This document shows, piece after piece, positions 1-8,297 of a stretch of 64,000 nucleotides of DNA. Source of the stretch: Pseudomonadota bacterium (lineage in GTDB: Bacteria > Myxococcota > JACRCW01 > JAFGSX01); the NCBI GenBank assembly GCA_043821645.1, contig JBDRCO010000068.1:160001-224000 (forward strand), given 5' to 3'. The notes below the pieces were generated by a model. It had not been told where the DNA came from and made no database searches. It was given only the letters and a program-made list of their open reading frames with translations. The position numbers and the translations under genes were made by a program. Numbering within the stretch: the stretch's first letter is position 1; each line of letters opens with the position of its first letter.

Positions 1-30
1 GCGCACCCACGTGGGGCATGAGGCCGGCCG

Positions 31-1089
31 GTGAGCCGCTACCTGGTCGGCCTCAGCGGCGGCGTGGACTCCAGCGTGGCGGCCGCGTTGCTGGTGGAGC
101 AGGGCCATGAGGTCATCGGCGCCTCGCTGCGCCTGGTCGACGACCCCAGCGCGCCCAGCCACCGCAGCTGCTGTAGCCAGGAAGATCTGGCCGCGGCCCG
201 CGCCCTCTGCGCGCAGCTGGACATCCCCTACTATGTCTTTGACCTGCGCGCGCGCTTTGACGAGCTGGTCATCCAGCCCTTCGTGCTCGACTACCTGCAG
301 GGCCGCACTCCCAACCCCTGCGTGCTGTGCAACCAGCACTTCAAATTCGGCGAGCTGCTGCAGCGCGCCCTGGCCCAGGGTGCCCGCCTGGCCACCGGCC
401 ACTACGCGCGACTGCTTCAGCTGCAGGGCCGCACCTGGCTGGCCAGGGCCTGTGACCGGGGCAAGGACCAAAGTTATTTTCTCTATCGTTTAAGCCATCA
501 AGCCATTGTAAGCACTGACTTTCCTCTCGGTGGGCTGACCAAGGTCGAGGTCCGCGCGCACGCCCGGCGGCTGGCCCTGAGCGTGCAGCACAGGCCAGAG
601 AGTCAGGAGGTCTGCTTTGCCGAAGAGGGCGCCGCGACCTTCGTGGCGGGCAGGGCAGGGCGACAGGTCTGCGCCGGAGTGGTGCGGGACGAGCAAGGCC
701 AGGCCCTGGGTGAGCATGCTGGCATCCACAACTTCACCATTGGCCAGCGCCGCGGCCTGGGGATAGGTGGCGGGCCACGCCGCTTTGTCACGGCGATAGA
801 CGGCAGCAGCGGTGCGGTCGAGGTGGGGCCGGACAGCGCGCTGTTCAAGCGCCAGGTGATCCTCGAACAGGTTCAATGGTCTGGCGAAAAAGATATGGAT
901 ACAAAGGAGTTACGGGCAAAAATTCGTGCCCGGCACGAACCCGCAGCGGTGCGGGTGCAGGCGCGGTCCGAGGCCAGCCTGGAGCTGGAATTCGAGCAGC
1001 CGCAACGGGCGCCAGCACCCGGTCAGGCCTGTGTGATTTACTGTGGAGAACGTGTGGTCGGGGGTGGAGTCATCGCCCGTGCCGCATAA
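31..1089 (+). CDS. mnmA: tRNA-specific 2-thiouridylase MnmA
   Basis: LSGGVDSSVAA PP-loop, GRTPNPCVLCN, ATGHYAR, KDQSYFL, ESQEVCF, FTIGQRRGLG, PGQ motifs. Confidence 0.97.
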   Translation: MSRYLVGLSGGVDSSVAAALLVEQGHEVIGASLRLVDDPSAPSHRSCCSQEDLAAARALCAQLDIPYYVFDLRARFDELVIQPFVLDYLQGRTPNPCVLCNQHFKFGELLQRALAQGARLATGHYARLLQLQGRTWLARACDRGKDQSYFLYRLSHQAIVSTDFPLGGLTKVEVRAHARRLALSVQHRPESQEVCFAEEGAATFVAGRAGRQVCAGVVRDEQGQALGEHAGIHNFTIGQRRGLGIGGGPRRFVTAIDGSSGAVEVGPDSALFKRQVILEQVQWSGEKDMDTKELRAKIRARHEPAAVRVQARSEASLELEFEQPQRAPAPGQACVIYCGERVVGGGVIARAA

Positions 1090-1116
1090 TTTTACATAAT
1101 ATGGATTATGTAAAAT
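1089..1116. other. Palindromic dif-like site (XerD-like arm | 6 bp | XerD-like arm)
   Basis: ATTTTACATAA-TATGGA-TTATGTAAAAT: perfect 11-bp inverted repeat with a 6-bp spacer; fills the mnmA-cca gap. Confidence 0.7.
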
Positions 1117-2479
1117 GAACATCCTCGAGCAGGTCCCGCTCAGCGTCCATCAGACCTGGCAACGCGTGCAGGCGGCAGGTCATGGCATCCACCTGGTGGG
1201 CGGTGCGGTACGCGACATCCTGCTCGGGCGCGCCACCAGCGATTTCGACCTGGCCTCGAGCGCCACGCCACAACAGCTCACCGAGCTCTTTGAGCGTGTT
1301 ATTCCAACAGGTTGGAAGCACGGAACGGTGACCGTGGTACAGCCGGACGGCCTGCTGGTCGAGATCACCAGCTATCGCAGCGAGGGTCCGTATTCAGATG
1401 GGCGGCACCCGGACCTGGTACAGCTCGGCAGCACGATAGAGCAGGACCTCGGACGCAGGGATTTCACCATCAACGCCATGGCCGTGAACTGCAACAGCGG
1501 CCAGCTGCTCGATCTGCATGGCGGTCAGGACGACCTGCGTGCCCGCCTGGTGCGCACTGTTGGCGAGCCAGCCAAAAGATTTCAAGAAGATGGCTTGCGT
1601 CTGTGGAGGGCGGCCCGGTTTGCGGCCACGCTCGAGTTCGAGGTGGAGCCCGGCACGCTGCAGGCCATGCGGGAGCAGTCGGCGTGTCTGCGCAAGGTGG
1701 CGGCGGAGAGGCAAAAAGATGAGCTGTTGCGCTTGCTTCAGGCGGTCGCTCCATCACGGGGTTTCAGGTTGCTGCAGCGCACAGGTCTGTTGAACCTGGT
1801 CCTGCCCGAGCTCGAGCGCTGCGTGGGCGTCGAACAAGGTGGCTGGCACCAGCACGACGTGTTCGAGCATAGTCTTGCAGCCCTGGACGCAGCGCCACAA
1901 GATCACCCAACACTACGTCTTGCTTTACTTTTACATGATATTGGCAAGCCTGGCTGCGCTCGCGGCGAGCTGCCGGATCGGTCCTTTCACGGCCACGAGC
2001 AACAAGGTGCGGAGCTGGCCCGGCAGGTTCTCGAGCGCCTGCGATTTTCCCGCAGCACGGTGGATGAGGTGGTCGCACTGGTTGCGGGCCACATGTGGCA
2101 CTACACAGACGACTGGAGCGATGGTGCGGTCAGGCGCTTTGTCTCGAGGCTGGGCCTGGATCGCCTCAACGATGTTTTCTTGTTCAGGGACGCTGACTTG
2201 CAAGGGAGAGGCGAAACCGGGCTAAAGGACGGTCAGCAACGCTCGCGGGCTTTGACCGCGCGCATCGAGCAGGTGCTGCAAACCAGCCATGTGCTGACCG
2301 TGCGCGACCTGGCGCTCGACGGCAAGGCGGTGTGCCGCATCCTGGGGATAGAGCCGGGCCCCATCGTGGGCCAGGCGCTGGCCTGGTGTCTGGAGCAGGT
2401 GCAGGACAGGCCACAGGACAACAATTCAGAAACATTAGAAAAGATGCTTCGGGACTGGTACCGCGGGCGCGGCCACTAG
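1115..2479 (+). CDS. cca: Class II tRNA nucleotidyltransferase with HD domain (CCA- or A-adding)
   Basis: LVGGAVRD, DFD, YSDGRHP loop, DLGRRDFTINAM, EDGLR, and HD motif LLHDIGKP. Confidence 0.92.
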   Translation: MNILEQVPLSVHQTWQRVQAAGHGIHLVGGAVRDILLGRATSDFDLASSATPQQLTELFERVIPTGWKHGTVTVVQPDGLLVEITSYRSEGPYSDGRHPDLVQLGSTIEQDLGRRDFTINAMAVNCNSGQLLDLHGGQDDLRARLVRTVGEPAKRFQEDGLRLWRAARFAATLEFEVEPGTLQAMREQSACLRKVAAERQKDELLRLLQAVAPSRGFRLLQRTGLLNLVLPELERCVGVEQGGWHQHDVFEHSLAALDAAPQDHPTLRLALLLHDIGKPGCARGELPDRSFHGHEQQGAELARQVLERLRFSRSTVDEVVALVAGHMWHYTDDWSDGAVRRFVSRLGLDRLNDVFLFRDADLQGRGETGLKDGQQRSRALTARIEQVLQTSHVLTVRDLALDGKAVCRILGIEPGPIVGQALAWCLEQVQDRPQDNNSETLEKMLRDWYRGRGH

Positions 2480-2534
2480 ACCGATTTCGCGCAAAAACGA
2501 AACGGTGAGCAAAGCCCCGCCAAAGGCATCAGAA

Positions 2535-2753
2535 TTTTCCACTTGTTTTCCACAGGGATCGGCCAAAAAACGTGGCCAAATTCGAGGCAGGTGAACGCAA
2601 CAGTGCACGAGCACCACATGAACTTCACATAATTCGCCTAAGGCGTTGTGAAATAAGACTTTTTTAAAGCAACCGATCGTCGTACTTCAGGTCGTGCTGA
2701 TGCAAAACAAAAGGGTTCTTGAAGCTTTGGGTCAGGAGTCGGCCTGTGGAAAA
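2535..2753. promoter_or_regulatory. DnaA-box-like 9-mers
   Basis: TTTTCCACT (2535-2543), TTTTCCACA (2546-2554) and inverted TGTGGAAAA (2745-2753); 1-2 mismatches to TTATCCACA. Confidence 0.4.
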
Positions 2754-2912
2754 GCTGTGACTTCATCCTCACGCGAAAAGTGCCGCCTAAGTCCAACTGA
2801 AAGCATGGTTTTATTTTTTATCAGCCCGGGCGAGGCCAAGCGAGCCAAATTGCCATTGCACAGTCGTCGTGGGGTGCGGTAACAGGGTGCGAGCGAGCAG
2901 CGAGGTTTTCAG

Positions 2913-3218
2913 ATGAGTGAAGGTACCAAGGGTGGAGCCGCAAGCCGGTCCAAGAAGTGGCTGAAGACAGGTATCTTCGCAGCCGGGATGGCGGTCATCC
3001 TGGGGGTGGCGGTGGCGGTCAGCCTGCTGGACACGCCGCCGGTCATGCCCGCTGACGAGACCCATGTGGTCATCGACAAGTTCCCCAACAAGGCCTGCCT
3101 CGAATGCCACGCTCCAGACAGCCTGCCGAACTCGCATCCCATCGAGTACGAGAGGTTTGCCTGCACGAGATGCCACCAGCAGACCCAGAAGACCGCTCCA
3201 CCGGGAGTGACGCAATAA
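2913..3218 (+). CDS. Small membrane-anchored/periplasmic diheme c-type cytochrome (NapB-like)
   Basis: N-terminal hydrophobic helix, PPVMP, and two CxxCH motifs (CLECH, CTRCH). Confidence 0.8.
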   Translation: MSEGTKGGAASRSKKWLKTGIFAAGMAVILGVAVAVSLLDTPPVMPADETHVVIDKFPNKACLECHAPDSLPNSHPIEYERFACTRCHQQTQKTAPPGVTQ

Positions 3219-3245
3219 TTTTACATAATGCTTCTTATCGGACAA
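3218..3245 (-). other. dif: Chromosome dimer resolution site dif (XerC/XerD)
   Basis: Minus strand reads TTGTCCGATAA-GAAGCA-TTATGTAAAAT (11-6-11); the right arm is 1 mismatch from E. coli XerD arm TTATGTTAAAT; site is intergenic, and KOPS-like octamers and core genes converge here. Confidence 0.75.
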
Positions 3246-3380
3246 TCAGATCGGGCCCCCACCGGACAATATCGATTATTAAAGAGTTTCTGAGCGCCGC
3301 TGCGTCTGCCTCATCCCCCACCATCAACGCACCTGCGCATCGCCCGCCAAGCTTGTGCACAGGAAGCACGCCTTGGGCCT

Positions 3381-3752
3381 GACAAGCCCCGGGCTGCGGC
3401 AGCTGTGAGCAGCGAGCGCGACTAGCAGGACTTGAGCCGCTGGTGCAACGAGCCGCCATCAGGACTTTGGGCCGCTGTGTGCAGCGTGCCGCCATCAGGC
3501 TGTCGCCCGCCAGTCCTGGTCACAGACCGCTCCTTGGACAAGCCCTGGCCCGTCCTAGACAAGCCCTGGTGAGCCGGCTTCCCCCTGAACCTGGCTTTTC
3601 TGGCTTCCTGACGTCTCTCTTGTGGCCTTGATGCCTTTGCATGCCGCCCGACCTGGCCTCTGGCTCGCTGTGTTGTGGCCTTGACCAGGTCGCCGCAGGC
3701 CCTGCGCGCGGTGAATGCCCACCCTGGTGGATTCTTAAGTACATCAAGGCCA
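3381..3752. repeat. Cluster of short imperfect direct repeats in a non-coding region
   Basis: GCCGCTG(T)GTGCARCGWGCCGCCATCAGG at 3436-3463 and 3471-3499; GACAAGCCC at 3381, 3537, 3558; TTGTGGCCTTGA at 3620 and 3673 with an inverted partial copy near 3744. Confidence 0.6.
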
Positions 3753-3754
3753 AG

Positions 3755-3820
3755 AAAATATTATATATTTACAGAATTTACACAGTTTACAGATTGACAC
3801 GGATGTACGCATTTACAGCC
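3755..3820. repeat. AT-rich tract followed by an ~9-bp tandem array (TTTACAG-like)
   Basis: AAAATATTATATA then TTTACAGAA TTTACACAG TTTACAGA TTGACACGG ATGTACGCA TTTACAGCC. Confidence 0.6.
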
Positions 3821-4238
3821 CTTGGGTAGCGATTTTGACAGGGTCAACCCAAGCCAGCACACCCTACCTGGGCTGCGGTTGCCGCCCTGCACGAGCACCG
3901 AACCACCCAAAATGTGCGCTTGGCCGGCTCACGGGCTTTGGAGTGCAGGACCCCGAACGAAGAAATGCTGCACCCGAACCAGGACGCCCGACCGAGGTTG
4001 GGTTCGGCACGCGGAGGAGCAGCCTCGCCTGACACGTCCCCCTGAACCGATGGATAGGAACGCGCGGGACAGCGTGAACCCAGCCGGTAGCTCAGCCAGA
4101 CGCAGACGCGGGACTCAGGTCCCCGGCCAGGACCGGCGCAGCCATCGCACTGCCAGACGGCTTGCTGCTACCGACATAACAAATTGGTATGATTGGTCAT
4201 TACAGAAGCTCCGGAGCACGGGTTGCAGCTGTGCCGGC

Positions 4239-4266
4239 TTTTTACAGAACAGGGATTATGTGAAAT
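4239..4266. other. Degenerate palindromic dif-like site (two XerD-like arms)
   Basis: TTTTTACAGAA-CAGGGA-TTATGTGAAAT, same 11-6-11 geometry. Confidence 0.55.
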
Positions 4267-4329
4267 CTGCGCCACCCGAGACCTGCACCGCGGTCGCAAG
4301 GAGCAAAATAACCTCGAATATACAACTAG

Positions 4330-6255
4330 TTATCGAATCACTTTGAGGCGGCGCCGCGCTAGCAAGGCGCCAAGGAGCAGCAGACCTGCGGTCAGGGAGC
4401 TGCGCTGCTCACCGGCACTGGAACACGAGAAACCCTGAACCGGCCCCAGGCTGGCTTTCTGTGACGGTTGCGAGGGTTCCGCGCCCGGCAGGACCGGGTG
4501 CTGACGCGAGTTTGCGAGCTCGAGCTGGGCAACGGGCGCTGGCAGCTGCAGTCCTGGACCGGCTGGCGGTTCCTCGAGCGGAGGTTCTTCGACCGGCGGT
4601 TGTTCTGGCGGAGGCTCGCCAGGCGGAGGCTCGGTGACCACGGAGGTCACGGCACTGAGCGCGATCTCGATGCGCTGGTTGTGACCACCCACCACGCTGA
4701 TGCTGCGCTCGTCGGGTTCGTAGCCGTCCTTGCTGGTGCGCACGGTGGCGGAGCCGGCGCTGAGGGTGAAGTGGACCTCGCCTGAAACCGAGGTCAGCTG
4801 GGCCGCCTGGCCCACGACCTGGACCGTGGCGCCATCCAGGGAGGCGCCCTGCCCGGCCGCCTGATCGTGCACGTGGAAGGTCAGCTCGGCGCTGGTCGGT
4901 ACCGGCGACAGACCGATGGAGGCCCAGGTCTCGGAGCCGGCGGTGACCTGCACGCTGCGCGAACTCTCGGCGTAGCCGGTGGCCGAGGCGGTGATGGTGT
5001 AGGTCCCGGGGTCGAGCTCGAAGCTCCAGTAGGCATCGTCGCTGCGCACGCCGCTGCTGGCGCCGCTGGAACTGCGCACGGTGGCGGCGGTCAGCCGGAG
5101 ATTGCCCAGGTCGGAGGGACCTGCGGTCACGGCCAGGTCCCACACCACGCCCTTGATGCTGCCCTTGGTCGGGGTGGCCGGGGGTGGCGGAGTGGTGGTG
5201 CCGCCGCTGCTCGCCACCGAGCGGAGGGTGCCCATCTGCGCGTACAGGTTGGTGCCCGGGCAGGCGGTGGCGGCCAGGTCGCGGTGGCCGACCACGCTGC
5301 TGCTGCTCACGCTGATGCCGTAGTCACGGGCCAGCAGCCCTATGAGTTTGCCTCCACCCTGGACCATGGCTGCGGGTGGAGTCTGCGGGGGCAGCGACGA
5401 GCAGTCGCTGGTGTGAAAGCAGCCCACGAAGGTGACGCCGAGGTTGTTGGTGTTCTGGTTGGCCACGTGTGCGCCCAGGTACTTGGCCTCGCGCGCCTCC
5501 CAGGTGCGGCCGTCGGCAGTGACGAAGAAGGTGTAGCCCACGTCGCAGTAGCCGCGCGCGTCCATGTGGTAGGCCTGGATCTGGCGCAGGTTGGCCTCGT
5601 AGCTCCCGTTGACCGTGGTGGCCGTCACGGTGTGGTGCACCGTGACCTTGGTCTTGCTGCTGTTCAAAGAGGTGCAGCGGGTGGCGCGAGCGCCCCAGGC
5701 CGCGCGCGACAGCACGCCACCGTTCGCCAGGCTGGTGGCCAGGGCTTGCTGCTGCGCTTCTGCGTTGCGCAGGCTGACAGCGTCGGGCTCCCAGTAGGGT
5801 GCGCTGGCCTGCATCGGGACAAAAAGCTGCCACTGCACGAAGACATAGGCCTCGACCTCGAGCTCCGGGATGCGAATCTGCGCGGCCACCGCCTCGAAGC
5901 CCAGGTCGGCGTGAGCCACGCGCAGAGGGTGTTCCTCCCAGGTGAAGACCACAGGCTGCCAGGGTCCGGGCTGGCCGTCGGCGTCGAGGCCGCGGGCTTC
6001 GGGGTACAGCGGCGCAGCCTCGCGATCCAGCGCCACCTCGATCATGAATCCAGCGCGGGTCACAGGCAGGGTGGAGTCGAGGCTCGGCGACTCGTAGTAA
6101 CCGTCGCGCAGGGTGTAGCTGTCGCGCAGGCGCTCGCCCAGGACGCGAGCCGAGGCCCCGTCATCACCGTCCCAGGGCGCAGGCGCCAGGCGCTCGCAGG
6201 CCAGAACAAGGCTCAGCAGCAGCAAGACGGGCCAGAAAGACTTGTACGCGCGCAT
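4330..6255 (-). CDS. N-acetylmuramoyl-L-alanine amidase (Amidase_2/PGRP) with carboxypeptidase-regulatory-like domains and MYXO-CTERM-like tail
   Basis: SRAAWGA, VHHT, DVGY, GAHV, GHRD..ACPG Zn ligands; lipobox-like LVLAC; C-terminal FSCSS...LLLLGALLARRR; GGAGG RBS upstream of ATG at 6255. Confidence 0.88.
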   Translation of the reverse strand: MRAYKSFWPVLLLLSLVLACERLAPAPWDGDDGASARVLGERLRDSYTLRDGYYESPSLDSTLPVTRAGFMIEVALDREAAPLYPEARGLDADGQPGPWQPVVFTWEEHPLRVAHADLGFEAVAAQIRIPELEVEAYVFVQWQLFVPMQASAPYWEPDAVSLRNAEAQQQALATSLANGGVLSRAAWGARATRCTSLNSSKTKVTVHHTVTATTVNGSYEANLRQIQAYHMDARGYCDVGYTFFVTADGRTWEAREAKYLGAHVANQNTNNLGVTFVGCFHTSDCSSLPPQTPPAAMVQGGGKLIGLLARDYGISVSSSSVVGHRDLAATACPGTNLYAQMGTLRSVASSGGTTTPPPPATPTKGSIKGVVWDLAVTAGPSDLGNLRLTAATVRSSSGASSGVRSDDAYWSFELDPGTYTITASATGYAESSRSVQVTAGSETWASIGLSPVPTSAELTFHVHDQAAGQGASLDGATVQVVGQAAQLTSVSGEVHFTLSAGSATVRTSKDGYEPDERSISVVGGHNQRIEIALSAVTSVVTEPPPGEPPPEQPPVEEPPLEEPPAGPGLQLPAPVAQLELANSRQHPVLPGAEPSQPSQKASLGPVQGFSCSSAGEQRSSLTAGLLLLGALLARRRLKVIR

Positions 6256-6363
6256 CACACAACCTCCCACACCGTACCGGGACAGTGTGGCAGGACACAT
6301 GGCAGCCGCCATCGGACGCTGGGGGGATAAGAAAAAGCTAAACTAATTCAGGAGGTTGATCGA

Positions 6364-7545
6364 TCAGTCGCGGCGTGCGTGAGCCCAGCCCGCGAATTTC
6401 GAGGACAGGGCATACAGCCAGCCACCGTTGCTGACCACCAGCACCAGATCGTCGGTCACGTCGGGTGCGCCAGCCATGCCCAGGGGCGATCCAAAGATCT
6501 GCCGGGGCTCGCCCGTGATCAGATCGAGCACGTACATGGCGCCCGCGTCGCTCGTGAACAGCACCTTGCCCCGGTCGAACACCGGTCGCGAGGCCGTGCC
6601 CTTGCCAAATTTGAAGGTCCACAGTGTGCGGCCGCTCACCAGGTCGACACCCGCAGCCTGCCCTGCACCCGCGGCCACCAGGACCTTGTCCTTGAGGCCA
6701 AGCCGAGTCATGCCGTCGGTGGCGTTGTGCCACAGGGTCTGGCCGGTGCTCAGCTCGACGGCCGTGATGCCACCGCTGGCGGCTGCAGCCACCAGGACAT
6801 GGCCCGTGATCACGGGGTCCGCGTCGACGTCGAAGAAGGCTTCTCCGCTTCCGATCTGGGCTCGCCACAGTTCGCGTCCAGTGTCGGCCTCGAGCAGGGC
6901 CACGCTGCCGTCGGCATAACCCATGGCCACCACGGTGCGAGCGGTGCCGTCACCGGATGGCAATCGTCCCAGAGCAGGCGAGGCATGGCCGAACAGGGTG
7001 ATGCCCAGGGGCTGCGGATGACGCTGGTGCCAGCGGTAGTCGCCGCTGGCGGCGTCCAGGCAATACAGGGTGTCGAGGGCGGTGGCGAAATACAGCGCGT
7101 CACCGTGCTGTTGCACCGGGCCATCGATCTCTGCGTCGGCCTGGAAGGTCCAGCCCAGCTCGCCGCGCAGGGGATCCAGAGCGTACAGCCGGGCATCGTC
7201 GGCACCGAAGGTCAGCCAGCGAGAGCCCACACTCGGCACGCTGCTGATGCTTCCCCCGGCCTCGAAGTGCCAGACCTCGCGGCGCTGGAGATCCAGCGCG
7301 TGCATCACGCGATCGGAGGTGCCGACGAAGATGAGGCCGCTCGGTGCATGGAACATCGGACCGCTGAACTCGCGATCTTTCCAGTGCGGCGTGAGCAGGT
7401 CCGGCACCGCGGTTGCCGCCGCAGCGACGGGCGTGGCCCACATCAGGCCATAGACCTGGCGGCTGGCGACGGACACCTCGGCGCGCAGGATCGGCGCCGC
7501 CAGCAGCACCGCGAGCAGACCGAGGGTGCGCACGGGACGCCTCAC
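6364..7545 (-). CDS. bamB: PQQ-like beta-propeller protein, BamB-like
   Basis: Repeated (A/C)LD..xG...W propeller blades; directly downstream of a YfgM-like gene. Confidence 0.78.
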   Translation of the reverse strand: MRRPVRTLGLLAVLLAAPILRAEVSVASRQVYGLMWATPVAAAATAVPDLLTPHWKDREFSGPMFHAPSGLIFVGTSDRVMHALDLQRREVWHFEAGGSISSVPSVGSRWLTFGADDARLYALDPLRGELGWTFQADAEIDGPVQQHGDALYFATALDTLYCLDAASGDYRWHQRHPQPLGITLFGHASPALGRLPSGDGTARTVVAMGYADGSVALLEADTGRELWRAQIGSGEAFFDVDADPVITGHVLVAAAASGGITAVELSTGQTLWHNATDGMTRLGLKDKVLVAAGAGQAAGVDLVSGRTLWTFKFGKGTASRPVFDRGKVLFTSDAGAMYVLDLITGEPRQIFGSPLGMAGAPDVTDDLVLVVSNGGWLYALSSKFAGWAHARRD

Positions 7546-8297
7546 TTCAGTCCTTCGAGCATGCTGGCTGCGTCGGTCTTGTACACGGAGTCGGTGAAGT
7601 CGCTCTCGATGCGCTCGAGATAGCCGCGGGCGCGATCCTTGTCGCCGGCCGCCATGGCAACCCGCGCGGCGTGGTACAGCCCGACATCCTTGCCATAGGA
7701 CTGCTTACCGTCGGCAACCCGAGCATAGGACTGGGCAGCCTGCTCGTTGAGTCCCTTGAGTTCCTGCGCGGCGGCAAGAGCCAGCAGCGCCGTGTTGCGC
7801 AGCGGGTCGGACTCGGCGAACTGGGCCACGGCCTTTTCACACGCGTCCACGGCGCAGTCCGCATCGCCGGTGTCGAGGCAAGCGCGCCCCAGATACAGGC
7901 GGGCCACCGCGCTGCTGCTATGGCTCGGATAGGCGGCGATGACCTTCTCGGCGGCCTCGCGCACAGCCTTGGCCTTCTCCTCGTCCGACTTGAACACGGG
8001 ATCGCCGTTGGGCTCCGGCTTCACCGCGCCCGTGAGATCCACTTGCCCGCGCTCGGCGCGGATCACCTCGGCCAGCACCAGCGAGGCCTTGCCGTCGACG
8101 TGCGCGTTGTAGGTGCTCATGGAGCCATAGACGATGCCGATCACCAGCAGTGCTCCGATCACGGACAGCACCAGCTTGCTGTTGCCCGCCATCCAGTCGA
8201 AGGCGCGCTGCGACAGGGACAGGAACTCGTCCGGGGCATCGACGCTCGGCACGCTGGCCTTGCGCTCATCTTTGGTGGGTTTGATTTTTCTGACCAC
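7542..8297 (-). CDS. Membrane-anchored TPR protein, YfgM-like
   Basis: PDEF motif, single N-terminal TM helix, TPR-like helices; translationally coupled to the bamB-like gene. Confidence 0.8.
   Translation of the reverse strand: MVRKIKPTKDERKASVPSVDAPDEFLSLSQRAFDWMAGNSKLVLSVIGALLVIGIVYGSMSTYNAHVDGKASLVLAEVIRAERGQVDLTGAVKPEPNGDPVFKSDEEKAKAVREAAEKVIAAYPSHSSSAVARLYLGRACLDTGDADCAVDACEKAVAQFAESDPLRNTALLALAAAQELKGLNEQAAQSYARVADGKQSYGKDVGLYHAARVAMAAGDKDRARGYLERIESDFTDSVYKTDAASMLEGLK

Follow-up and report, generated by a model that had tools for sequence, protein, structure and literature searches.

The locus described here raises the question of what palindromes built from the XerD arm of a dif site are doing beside the chromosomal dif itself. 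A preliminary description of the window, i.e., the whole stretch of 64,000 nucleotides that was analyzed, had placed three 11-6-11 elements at 1089-1116, 3218-3245, and 4239-4266 and interpreted them as an array for loading XerD at the replication terminus. All three elements were confirmed at these positions, and the sequence comparisons given below partly support the interpretation: each sequence-level check named there came out in its favor, while XerD binding, lack of recombination, and an influence on Smc or terminus organization are inferences.

The dif site and its satellites

The central element (3218-3245, minus strand) had been regarded as a normal XerC|XerD dif. It reads TTGTCCGATAA GAAGCA TTATGTAAAAT in the 11-6-11 format, with the XerD arm at 3218-3228, the spacer at 3229-3234, and the XerC arm at 3235-3245. 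A scan of the whole 7.07-Mb assembly returned this site as the single occurrence of the TCCNATAA-N6-TTATG skeleton and yielded no better dif elsewhere, its arms were kept in all four genomes of the class, and it agreed with the dif sequences that PMC2731167 gives for Myxococcus and Anaeromyxobacter. The site lies at 163.2 kb of the 356-kb contig C68, where cumulative GC skew was maximal in the 165-170 kb bin. The most skewed 8-mer in a de novo search was GGGCAGGG (52 vs 13), and the KOPS-like word GGGNAGGG pointed toward the cluster 70 times compared to 15 in the opposite direction. Its polarity switched between window positions 653 and 4847: the last plus-strand word to the left was at 653-660 (C68:160653), overlapping a second copy at 648-655 (C68:160648), and the first minus-strand word to the right was at 4847-4854 (C68:164847). 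All six words from 130 kb of C68 up to the cluster were on the plus strand and nine of ten from 4847 to 200 kb on the minus strand. The skew maximum and the polarity switch thus coincide with the cluster, bearing out the proposed terminus location, and 3218-3245 is on these criteria the sole predicted XerC|XerD dif of the genome. The corresponding proteins were encoded once each for XerD (333.6 bits, cut-off 329.6) and XerC (334.5 bits, just under the cut-off of 335.15), together with an FtsK gamma domain, Smc (1008 bits), ScpA, and ScpB.

The two other elements, termed satellites S1 and S3, carry XerD-type arms on both sides. S1 (1089-1116; ATTTTACATAA TATGGA TTATGTAAAAT) is a palindrome with perfectly inverted arms, both identical to the XerD arm of dif, and lies 2.1 kb from dif on its XerD-arm side. 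It occupies the entire gap between mnmA and cca, extending from the mnmA stop codon (1087-1089) to the cca ATG (1115-1117). S3 (4239-4266; TTTTTACAGAA CAGGGA TTATGTGAAAT) is a quasi-palindrome 1.0 kb from dif on the XerC-arm side, its arms having zero and two mismatches to the XerD arm, with both mismatches in the left arm. The motif TTATGTRAAAT with up to one mismatch occurred five times in the 64-kb window compared to 0.03 expected, a count reached by none of 100 shuffles, and a chance origin of the cluster is excluded. The motif, which the preliminary description had not seen elsewhere in the window, was not scattered over the genome either: its four exact copies in the 140-contig assembly all fell inside the 3.2-kb cluster, as did five of the ten assembly-wide matches with up to one mismatch. 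When all sequences were ranked against an XerD|XerD template, S1 (no mismatches) and S3 (two) came on top, followed by a match with three mismatches on a different contig.

Further half-sites had also been proposed. The one at 2622-2632 (minus strand, TTATGTGAAGT) is a real XerD-like arm with one mismatch and could be a decayed site; it is one among 32 one-mismatch matches genome-wide and had no conserved counterpart in the sister genus (G001). Its suggested partner at 2644-2654 did not hold up, having three mismatches and a gap of 11 bp rather than 6, which leaves 2622-2632 a lone arm. The half-site near 1928 is present as a two-mismatch match within the cca reading frame and is weak, with 462 such matches genome-wide, although three fell in the 3.5 kb of the cluster compared to 0.23 expected. 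The term array was too generous for a 3.2-kb stretch with two good satellites and a lone arm.

The cluster is set among ordinary genes. The tRNA 2-thiouridylase gene mnmA (31-1089, plus strand; PF03054, PF20259, and PF20258, E 3e-66) ends on the first base of S1 and is followed by cca (1115-2479, plus strand; PF01743, PF12627, PF01966, and PF13735), which codes for a CCA-adding enzyme/poly(A) polymerase family protein with an HD domain and is 50% identical to the gene at the same position in G001. A small ORF of 101 amino acids (2913-3218, plus strand) has a stop codon overlapping the first base of dif, a coding-like GC3 of 0.78, and weak matches to c-type cytochromes (NrfB-like 6.2e-05, NapB 2.2e-04), neither of which reaches the curated Pfam cut-off; homologues with 45% identity (G001) and 41% identity over 64 amino acids (G003) likewise adjoin dif. 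The 1-kb spacer between dif and S3 (3246-4238; ~59% GC) contained no ORF with a coding GC3 signature, its longest ORF had no Pfam match, and the segment had no Rfam match. To the right, an N-acetylmuramoyl-L-alanine amidase with CarboxypepD_reg/PEGA domains (4330-6312, minus strand; Pfam) shares 54% identity with its G001 counterpart, which is the immediate neighbor of dif there.

Recurrence and co-variation in related lineages

Satellites were scored under a strict criterion in which each arm had up to two mismatches to the XerD arm of the same genome, with position 7 free, at up to 5 kb from dif. They were found in all four genomes of this class and in eight of ten genomes of a second family (nine under a relaxed criterion), the denominator being the genomes with a located dif among the 18 of that family. 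In other phyla, 1 of 118 dif loci had a satellite (4 of 118 when relaxed), the sole strict case being a Bacillus MAG with the palindromic core at two places only, 1.3 and 23 kb from dif. Most of the large Myxococcota-like families sampled from the phylum lacked the core (present in 1/74 and 0/27 genomes), suggesting that termini there are managed without such palindromes. A dif flanked by XerD-arm palindromes is recurrent in related Myxococcota-like lineages, including a positional homologue of S1 at the cca start in G001 and, for G002, G003, and G024, satellites of S3-like shape (ACAG[A/T]A-N6-TTATGT) next to the XerC arm side of dif. No single satellite appears indispensable, as S3 and its spacer segment were missing in G001 and no satellite was present within 4.7 kb of dif in G079. 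The satellites also varied among lineages in side, orientation, and distance (39 bp to 4.9 kb), giving no sign of a fixed geometry. These losses and variations, like the scarcity of the core in the large families, weigh against a docking role.

The arms were kept while the surrounding sequence diverged. Between the satellites of G002 and G003, for which protein identity in the adjacent gene is ~49%, 11/11 and 10/11 arm positions were identical compared to 2/6 in the spacer, and the flanks were unalignable. At the cca start, this genome (G000) and G001 shared nine of 11 positions in each arm, confirming in a relative the palindrome reported between mnmA and cca. The dif spacer of the second family was GATATA in 10/10 genomes whereas its satellite spacers were all different. 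Conserved arms with diverged spacers and flanks suggest the selection footprint of a binding site. The outer arm positions in addition change jointly in the satellites and the XerD arm of dif, lineage by lineage. Position 10 was A in both for G000, G001, and G091 and C in both for G002, G003, G064, G069, G015, G095, G024, G074, G083, and G039, with the switch in G091 occurring within its own family; at position 11, dif and satellite agreed on A in G095 and on T in its congener G015. The changes in S1 between G000 and G001 affected four different stem pairs and were non-compensatory for a hairpin, favoring two independent protein half-sites and arguing against an RNA or cruciform structure.

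Known Xer systems and alternative explanations

The site at 3218-3245 conforms to the canonical dif/XerCD/FtsK system, for which dif sites have been predicted in Myxococcus xanthus and Anaeromyxobacter (PMC2731167): it has the 11-6-11 format, an GTCCGATAA XerC arm, and a TTATGT-type XerD arm, is low in GC and non-coding, and is located where the skew switches. In published surveys each chromosome has a single dif, and the available portions of these surveys make no mention of flanking XerD|XerD palindromes (PMC2731167, PMC3025954). Multiple Xer-type sites with differing central regions that bracket short gene segments are found as xrs/pdif sites in Acinetobacter baumannii Rep_3 plasmids, where the segments are not excised by the sites (PMC11705084). 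Those sites are XerC|XerD, plasmid-borne, and recombine to give cointegrates, in contrast to the chromosomal XerD|XerD sites at the terminus here (PMC11705084). Integrative elements at dif (IMEX) such as the CTX phage, TLC phage, and gonococcal genetic island (PMC2731167, PMC3025954, PMC9226527) likewise produce a pair of sites, dif and an imperfect dif-like one, that enclose foreign-looking DNA. The second sites of IMEX are, however, XerC|XerD hybrids whose XerD arm is degenerate, while the second sites here are XerD|XerD, conserved across deep divergence, and without element genes.

The satellites might nevertheless be functionless attachment-site remnants of Xer-mediated insertions beside dif, the main rival account although one that we consider unlikely, with cca captured between S1 and the 2622 half-site and 1 kb of non-coding DNA captured between dif and S3. 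The content of the dif-satellite interval differs by lineage (this family has cca, G002 and G003 have an RNase_H_2-family gene, and the second family has a radical SAM gene), as also expected of insertion at Xer sites, and this weighs against a docking function. GC dropped to 0.59 at window positions 2001-4000 compared to 0.67 genome-wide; cca stands between mnmA and the cytochrome-like ORF in this family only, with the one-mismatch arm at 2622 located where one would expect the right junction of a cca insertion, in decayed form; and G001, lacking the dif-S3 segment, has dif 53 bp from the amidase much as S3 is 63 bp from it here. Further traces are eight bases of the XerC arm (CGGACAAT) that recur 24 bp beyond and the resemblance between the left-arm flanks of S1 and dif. 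However, when XerC|XerD sites undergo ordinary XerCD exchange, the products are XerC|XerD hybrids and not XerD|XerD palindromes, and the amidase-proximal arm of S3 is an XerD arm where simple integration would leave an XerC arm. Scars would also be expected to decay, yet both arms persisted at ~50% protein identity amid scrambled spacers and flanks, and their outer positions followed the XerD arm of dif. The intervals enclose ordinary cellular genes, the same gene being kept across genera, and no phage, plasmid, or recombinase genes were detected near the cluster with Pfam.

Recombination by the palindromes themselves, through XerD alone or XerD with FtsK, would provide back-up dimer resolution (for instance between sister satellites, whose spacers are identical) or single-gene cassette exchange. 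Palindromic sites served by a single recombinase are established for XerH/difH, XerS/difSL, and archaeal XerA (PMC2731167, PMC11840125), the inner TTATG/CATAA bases beside the cleavage positions were kept in every satellite, and the dif-satellite interval is usually one gene or ~1 kb. We judge this improbable given that satellite spacers drift freely in the second family while the dif spacer is fixed, that orientation relative to dif flips among lineages, and that the XerC/XerD/dif/FtsK system is already complete. Least probable of all is that the palindromes are operators of another DNA-binding protein, e.g., S1 for cca, with a likeness to the XerD arm that is coincidental or ancestral in sequence only. 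S1 spans the mnmA-cca gap through to the cca start, accompanies cca in G001 despite a different upstream neighbor, and was flagged together with dif as promoter-like AT-rich DNA by a simple promoter scan. An operator sits poorly with arm changes that track the dif XerD arm of each genome, with satellites that adjoin unrelated genes in other lineages, and with the sole motif copies in 7.07 Mb flanking dif.

Putative XerD docking at the terminus

The reading that we favor, at somewhat better than an even chance, is that S1 and S3 are non-recombining, XerD-only docking sites comparable to the XerD binding sites (XDS) at which XerD unloads Smc-ScpAB in the terminus region of Bacillus subtilis (Karaboja et al., 2021, as cited in PMC11840125, PMC11894783, PMC10945525, and PMC8242196). 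As for XDS in these citing papers, dif-like XerD-arm sequences additional to dif lie in the terminus region of a genome that encodes Smc, ScpA, and ScpB, and the Bacillus MAG of the control set had the same signature of XerD|XerD quasi-palindromes near dif only. The resemblance, drawn from the citing papers and this control, would extend by analogy to XerD binding and Smc unloading. Differences are the phylum and the arrangement, with one or two sites up to 5 kb from dif here compared to sites over a reportedly wider terminus region for XDS (and 23 kb for the second site of the Bacillus MAG). MatP/matS of Escherichia coli is a possible functional analogue in which sequence-specific sites concentrated near dif exclude an SMC complex from the terminus, although protein and motif are unrelated and matS sites are many and spread over hundreds of kilobases (PMC10945525, PMC11894783).

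Under the XerD docking model, one XerD protomer would occupy each inverted arm of S1 and S3. Because XerD is inactive without FtsK and each satellite has a central region unlike that of dif or of the other satellite, strand exchange with dif would not take place and the satellites would be stable. XerD complexes would thereby be placed on either side of dif within the 4.2-kb zone of converging FtsK-orienting words, such that DNA-tracking machines heading for the terminus would meet XerD first. A possible consequence is that FtsK is stopped beside dif; most likely, XerD at the satellites would unload or stop Smc-ScpAB at the terminus, as for the B. subtilis XDS.

The dif site and the position of the terminus

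The genome under study is an uncultured metagenome-assembled genome of 7.07 Mb (140 contigs, 67% GC, 94.7% complete), and the window belongs to its 356-kb contig C68. Reading of positions 1000-4400 bore out the positions and arms of the three 28-bp elements in the preliminary description, which had taken that at 3218-3245 for a normal XerC|XerD dif and the other two for symmetric XerD|XerD satellites. On the minus strand the 28-bp dif reads TTGTCCGATAA GAAGCA TTATGTAAAAT, an 11-6-11 layout with distinct XerC and XerD arms, and the skeleton TCCNATAA-N6-TTATG occurs at this one site in the 7.07-Mb assembly, with no second copy that could be a better dif. The XerC arm (GTCCGATAA) and the XerD arm were kept across the four genomes of the class, whose flanks failed to align, and the site matches the dif sequences of Myxococcus xanthus and Anaeromyxobacter as given in an excerpt of the source (PMC2731167). 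Eight bases of the XerC arm, CGGACAAT, recur 24 bp downstream (3239 and 3263; region 3239-3270), a repeat that may date from an earlier event at this site.

Along the 356-kb contig, cumulative GC skew climbed, peaked in the 165-170 kb bin, and then fell, placing dif (163.2 kb of C68) 2-7 kb from the maximum, in agreement with the terminal location proposed earlier. A de novo search for 8-mers flipping strand at dif ranked GGGCAGGG first (52 copies towards dif and 13 away), and the word GGGNAGGG pointed towards dif 70 times versus 15 (70/85 words consistent). The best switch point of GGGNAGGG fell between C68:160653 and C68:164847, i.e., 653 and 4847 of the window; within 130-200 kb of C68, 6/6 words left of the switch were on the plus strand and 9/10 right of it on the minus strand. 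The switch therefore puts dif and both satellites together in a 4.2-kb convergence zone.

The genome encodes one XerD (333.6 bits versus a cut-off of 329.6) and one XerC, the latter scoring 334.5 bits, 0.65 bit under its equivalog cut-off of 335.15, with this still its best family; xerC is on contig C89 and xerD on C94. The other tyrosine recombinases, an integron integrase and two phage-type integrases, are all on other contigs, and no tyrosine recombinase gene was found within the first 7.5 kb of the window. The integron integrase is full length and located at a contig end (G000:C123:42814-45422; TIGR02249, 452.6 bits). In the XerH/difH, XerS/difSL, and XerA systems a single recombinase, often encoded adjacent to its site, replaces XerC and XerD, unlike the one XerC plus one XerD of this genome. 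FtsK with a gamma domain was also encoded, as were Smc (1008 bits), ScpA, and ScpB; scpA and scpB (G000:C89:13230-14958) share a contig with xerC and lie ~6.5 kb upstream of it. The 11-6-11 layout, single copy, location at the skew and word switch, and presence of XerC, XerD, and the FtsK gamma domain are those of a chromosomal dif, and on these sequence features 3218-3245 is securely assigned as the dif of the chromosome and is predicted to resolve chromosome dimers.

XerD-type arms around dif and in related genomes

The first satellite, S1 (1089-1116), reads ATTTTACATAA TATGGA TTATGTAAAAT with perfectly inverted arms and, as originally claimed, takes up the whole gap between mnmA (31-1089) and cca (1115-2479). 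The second, S3 (4239-4266), reads TTTTTACAGAA CAGGGA TTATGTGAAAT with XerD-type arms on both sides. All three spacers differ (TATGGA in S1, GAAGCA in dif or TGCTTC on the plus strand, and CAGGGA in S3). A 101-amino-acid ORF with weak c-type cytochrome matches (2913-3218) precedes dif, and a cell-wall amidase gene (4330-6312, minus strand) follows S3. The left arms of S1 and dif are each overlapped by a stop codon, that of mnmA covering the first base of S1 and that of the 101-amino-acid ORF the first base of dif, and the two left flanks are alike past the 11-bp arm (1080-1100 and 3208-3229), with CGCATAA and CGCAATAA preceding TTTTACATAAT. Between dif and the amidase gene (3246-4329), no ORF carried a coding GC3 signature and the longest lacked a Pfam match; an Rfam search of window positions 1-8000 matched no family at E values up to 1.

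Several further features were observed in the intergenic DNA. The gap between cca and the cytochrome-like ORF contains DnaA-box-like words (2535-2554 and 2745-2753), namely TTTTCCAC at 2535 and 2546 and the inverted TTTTCCACA at 2745, the latter occurring just 12 times genome-wide; the sister genus keeps these words as a pair, spaced ~200 bp apart, in its corresponding gap. An AT-rich patch (3766-3820, 41% GC) holds TTTAC[AC] words at 3768, 3777, and 3786 with a 9-bp period and a fourth at 3812, the first of which, TATTTACAGAA, equals the left arm of S3 at 10/11 positions. A terminator-like hairpin on the plus strand (4216-4243) has as its T-run the outer part of the S3 left arm, with no upstream gene on that strand. 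To the left of the window, 5.3 kb from S1, an AT-rich intergenic region between divergent genes (G000:C68:155725-155790) contains the inverted repeat ATTTACAT-N10-ATGTAAAT and a degenerate ATAA-N6-TTAT skeleton, one of only six such in the genome.

Allowing up to one mismatch, TTATGTRAAAT occurred five times in the window versus 0.03 expected, and 0/100 shuffles reached five. A genome-wide scan for the arm, proposed in the preliminary description, showed that the motif clusters at dif: all four exact copies in the assembly fell inside the 3.2-kb cluster, as did five of the ten copies with up to one mismatch. For the relaxed arm TTATGTNAAMT, the local share was 4/4 at zero mismatches, 1/32 at one, and 3/462 at two (expectation per 3.5 kb, 0.016 at one mismatch and 0.23 at two). 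A XerD|XerD template scan of the genome placed S1 (0 mismatches) and S3 (2 mismatches) on top among only 15 sites with up to six mismatches; the third-best match, on another contig (G000:C87:224461), had three mismatches and lay in an AT-rich gap, and a further weaker site was on contig C23. The cluster of XerD arms is therefore real and far beyond chance. Of two additional half-sites reported earlier, that at 2622-2632 was recovered with one mismatch but has no proper partner and is not kept in the sister genus, and that near 1928 is a weak match inside cca.

The class comparison comprises only four genomes with a mutual protein identity of ~50%, at which neutral DNA is scrambled. In the same-family genome from the sister genus (G001), a site at the start of cca is followed by cca itself and then by the cytochrome-like ORF, dif, and the amidase gene in turn. 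The cca-start site, ATTTTACGGAA TAAATA TTATGTCTAAT, is a counterpart of S1 with 9/11 positions kept in each arm, answering the question of whether S1 is conserved in relatives. This genome lacks S3 and the 1-kb spacer and has 53 bp between dif and the amidase gene; on a 3.7-kb contig (G001:C61; locus positions 2304-2314), an exact XerD-type arm, TTATGTAAACT, stands alone without a partner. A reading of S1 as a hairpin or terminator was rejected: no U-tract follows S1, and its differences between the two genera affect four different stem pairs and are non-compensatory, which argues that what is conserved is neither an RNA hairpin nor a cruciform.

In the two genomes of the other family (G002 and G003), mnmA and then the cytochrome-like ORF precede dif, and an RNase_H_2-family gene separates dif from a satellite ~1.5 kb away, reading AGTTGACAGTA CCTGAG TTATGTCAACT and AGTTGACAGAA TCGGGA TTATGTCAACT, respectively. 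The satellite arms are identical at 11/11 and 10/11 positions compared to 2/6 in the spacer, the flanks fail to align, and the XerD-arm pattern has exactly two matches in each genome, dif and the satellite. The asymmetry of S3 is inverted relative to these equivalent satellites. No remnant of the RNase_H_2-family gene was found by tblastn in the 1-kb spacer, its sole match in the genome under study being a 30-31% identical gene on contig C3.

Recurrence in a second family and background frequency

The palindromic core ACAKWA-N6-TTATGT was found in 32 of 201 genomes scanned from the phylum, including 1/74 and 0/27 in the large families and 9/17 in a second family outside the class (f4). The mix of families in this sample, together with the dif consensus, is consistent with Myxococcota, the probable phylum assumed in the preliminary description. 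Follow-up covered 25 sites fetched from 19 genomes plus the site of G039, an f4 member; the matches left out were from nine genomes, all small (1.3-3.4 Mb), in several of which the reversed control pattern was common. The 12 core sites examined outside the class and f4 had no dif nearby and arms unlike a XerD arm, with the exception of G026. This genome has four palindromic CACATAA-N6-TTATGTG sites of two spacer classes on four contigs, three of them at most 1.5 kb from a contig end (the other, ~900 bp), a placement suggestive of a repeated element.

The second family was first noticed through the palindromic core, and its satellite count comes from a later dif-anchored search in which dif was located independently by the invariant spacer GATATA in 10/18 genomes, the other eight being outside the count. 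A satellite was accepted if each arm had up to two mismatches to the XerD arm of its own genome, with position 7 free. Under this strict criterion, one or more XerD|XerD sites were found no further than 5 kb from dif in 8/10 genomes; in G095, the ninth, one arm of the satellite is degenerate, and G079 has none within 4.7 kb. Satellites were 39 bp (G091) to 4.9 kb (G039) from dif; six genomes carry one on the XerC side and four on the XerD side, with G024 having both as in the genome under study. A radical SAM gene separates dif and satellite in four f4 genomes (Pfam check in two). A rule that the satellite is always on the XerC side ~1 kb from dif held in the first seven genomes and was broken by four further f4 genomes.

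The baseline was drawn from one-genome-per-species contigs carrying the exact GTCCGATAA-N6-TTATGT, giving at least 118 dif-bearing loci from many phyla with a median flank of ~3.5 kb on each side of dif. Among the loci listed, 1/118 had a satellite under the same strict criterion and 4/118 under a relaxed one, three of these four in loci of 31-41% GC. The strict case is a Bacillus metagenome-assembled genome with the palindromic core at only two places, 1.3 and 23 kb from dif, and is a positive control of a sort since XerD-only sites are established in Bacillus subtilis. One locus of a Planctomycetota metagenome-assembled genome (L091, 4856-4937) contains two complete, inverted XerC|XerD dif-like sites 26 bp apart. 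Metagenome contigs scanned with an alignment of the neighboring amidase yielded 32 loci (best identity 62%), none with a dif-like or XerD-arm site and none a closer relative of the locus. The satellites are XerD-arm palindromes, conserved and linked to dif, that were found repeatedly in two lineages and hardly anywhere else. No account of XerD palindromes beside dif in Myxococcota was found among the literature titles and excerpts searched, which is no proof of absence.

Competing explanations and proposed role of the satellites

In f4 the dif spacer is identical in 10/10 genomes and the satellite spacers are all different. Arms kept while spacers vary freely, both here and between the two genomes of the other family of the class, are the footprint of two protein half-sites and not of a site selected for strand exchange with dif. 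Satellites as XerD-only recombination sites rank lower. Operators for another protein, for example one controlling cca at whose start S1 is placed, likewise rank lower, and the outer arm positions bear on the identity of the reader. At position 10, dif and satellite both have A in the genome under study, its sister genus, and G091, and both have C in the remaining ten genomes, the switch in G091 having occurred inside f4; position 11 is A in dif and satellite of G095 and T in both for its congener G015. Such shared changes indicate that the same protein reads both or that the sites were homogenized against each other, and either alternative ties the satellites to the XerD arm.

In the strongest rival reading, S1 and S3 would be junctions left by Xer-mediated insertions. 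The DNA separating dif from the satellites varies by lineage, cca is beside dif in the family of the genome under study only, GC falls to 0.59 at the locus, and the dif-S3 segment, of lower GC, is missing from the one same-family genome (~50% protein identity); a junction that has decayed could account for the lone arm at 2622, and part of the XerC arm recurs 24 bp downstream of dif. However, XerD|XerD palindromes cannot arise by legitimate XerCD exchange, simple integration would have left another type of arm on the amidase-facing side of S3, the genes between the sites are ordinary and are kept in different genera, and both arms outlast a divergence that erased the surrounding DNA. For an integrative element exploiting Xer (IMEX) at dif, phage, plasmid, or accessory Xer factor genes would be expected, compared to the cca, cytochrome-like ORF, and non-coding DNA found here, and the second site would be a XerC|XerD hybrid in direct repeat with dif, whereas S1 and S3 are XerD-type on both sides. 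Contigs of four metagenome runs (X1-X4, groundwater and biofilm) were also compared with window positions 1-7000. One X1 contig was colinear over 1011-3269 through S1 and dif and another over 4074-5076 through S3, and none of the seven listed joints connects any two of S1, dif, and S3. Contigs drop rare variants, so the missing joints are no proof of stability; X1 is possibly the source sample of the genome.

XerD docking satellites around dif, as first proposed, are the best-supported reading, and the XerD-type arms, free spacers, and changes shared with the XerD arm of dif lend indirect support to S1 and S3 as putative XerD-only sites. We infer that XerD would occupy both arms of S1 and of S3, as well as the effect of this occupancy. 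Tyrosine recombinases need matching central regions to complete exchange, and XerD is latent without FtsK; given three differing spacers, the satellites would therefore be expected to be stable and non-recombining, so that XerD complexes would flank dif on both sides. In B. subtilis, XerD on dif-like XerD binding sites (XDS) unloads Smc-ScpAB at the terminus, according to excerpts of the sources (PMC11840125, PMC11894783, PMC10945525, PMC8242196). Like XDS, S1 and S3 are dif-like, XerD-arm-bearing, additional to dif, and in the terminus region of a genome encoding Smc-ScpAB. By this precedent and the presence of Smc, ScpA, and ScpB, the satellites would most likely serve to unload or block Smc-ScpAB, with FtsK arrest via its gamma domain beside dif a candidate alternative or additional role.

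A broader and doubtful generalization, offered tentatively, is that dif in several Myxococcota-like lineages is composite, guarded by XerD-homodimer sites that would stop or unload machines tracking along the DNA in either direction, namely Smc-ScpAB arriving from the origin and FtsK moving along its orienting KOPS words. Such a terminus insulator would be compact and sequence-defined, would have originated independently of Bacillus XDS and MatP/matS, and its specificity would evolve in step with the XerD arm of dif. Outside Bacillus and the enterobacteria, little is known of how SMC loop extrusion ends at the terminus and how this is coordinated with FtsK and dimer resolution, and excerpts of reviews name only XerD/XDS and MatP/matS as dedicated systems for SMC at the terminus. 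Surveys giving one dif per chromosome can overlook putatively functional sister sites. Since the arms change with the XerD arm of dif, the satellites carry built-in evidence on which protein reads them, and a conserved pair of XerD-arm palindromes set against dif offers a precise target of a few dozen bp for ChIP, Hi-C, and deletion in a second phylum.
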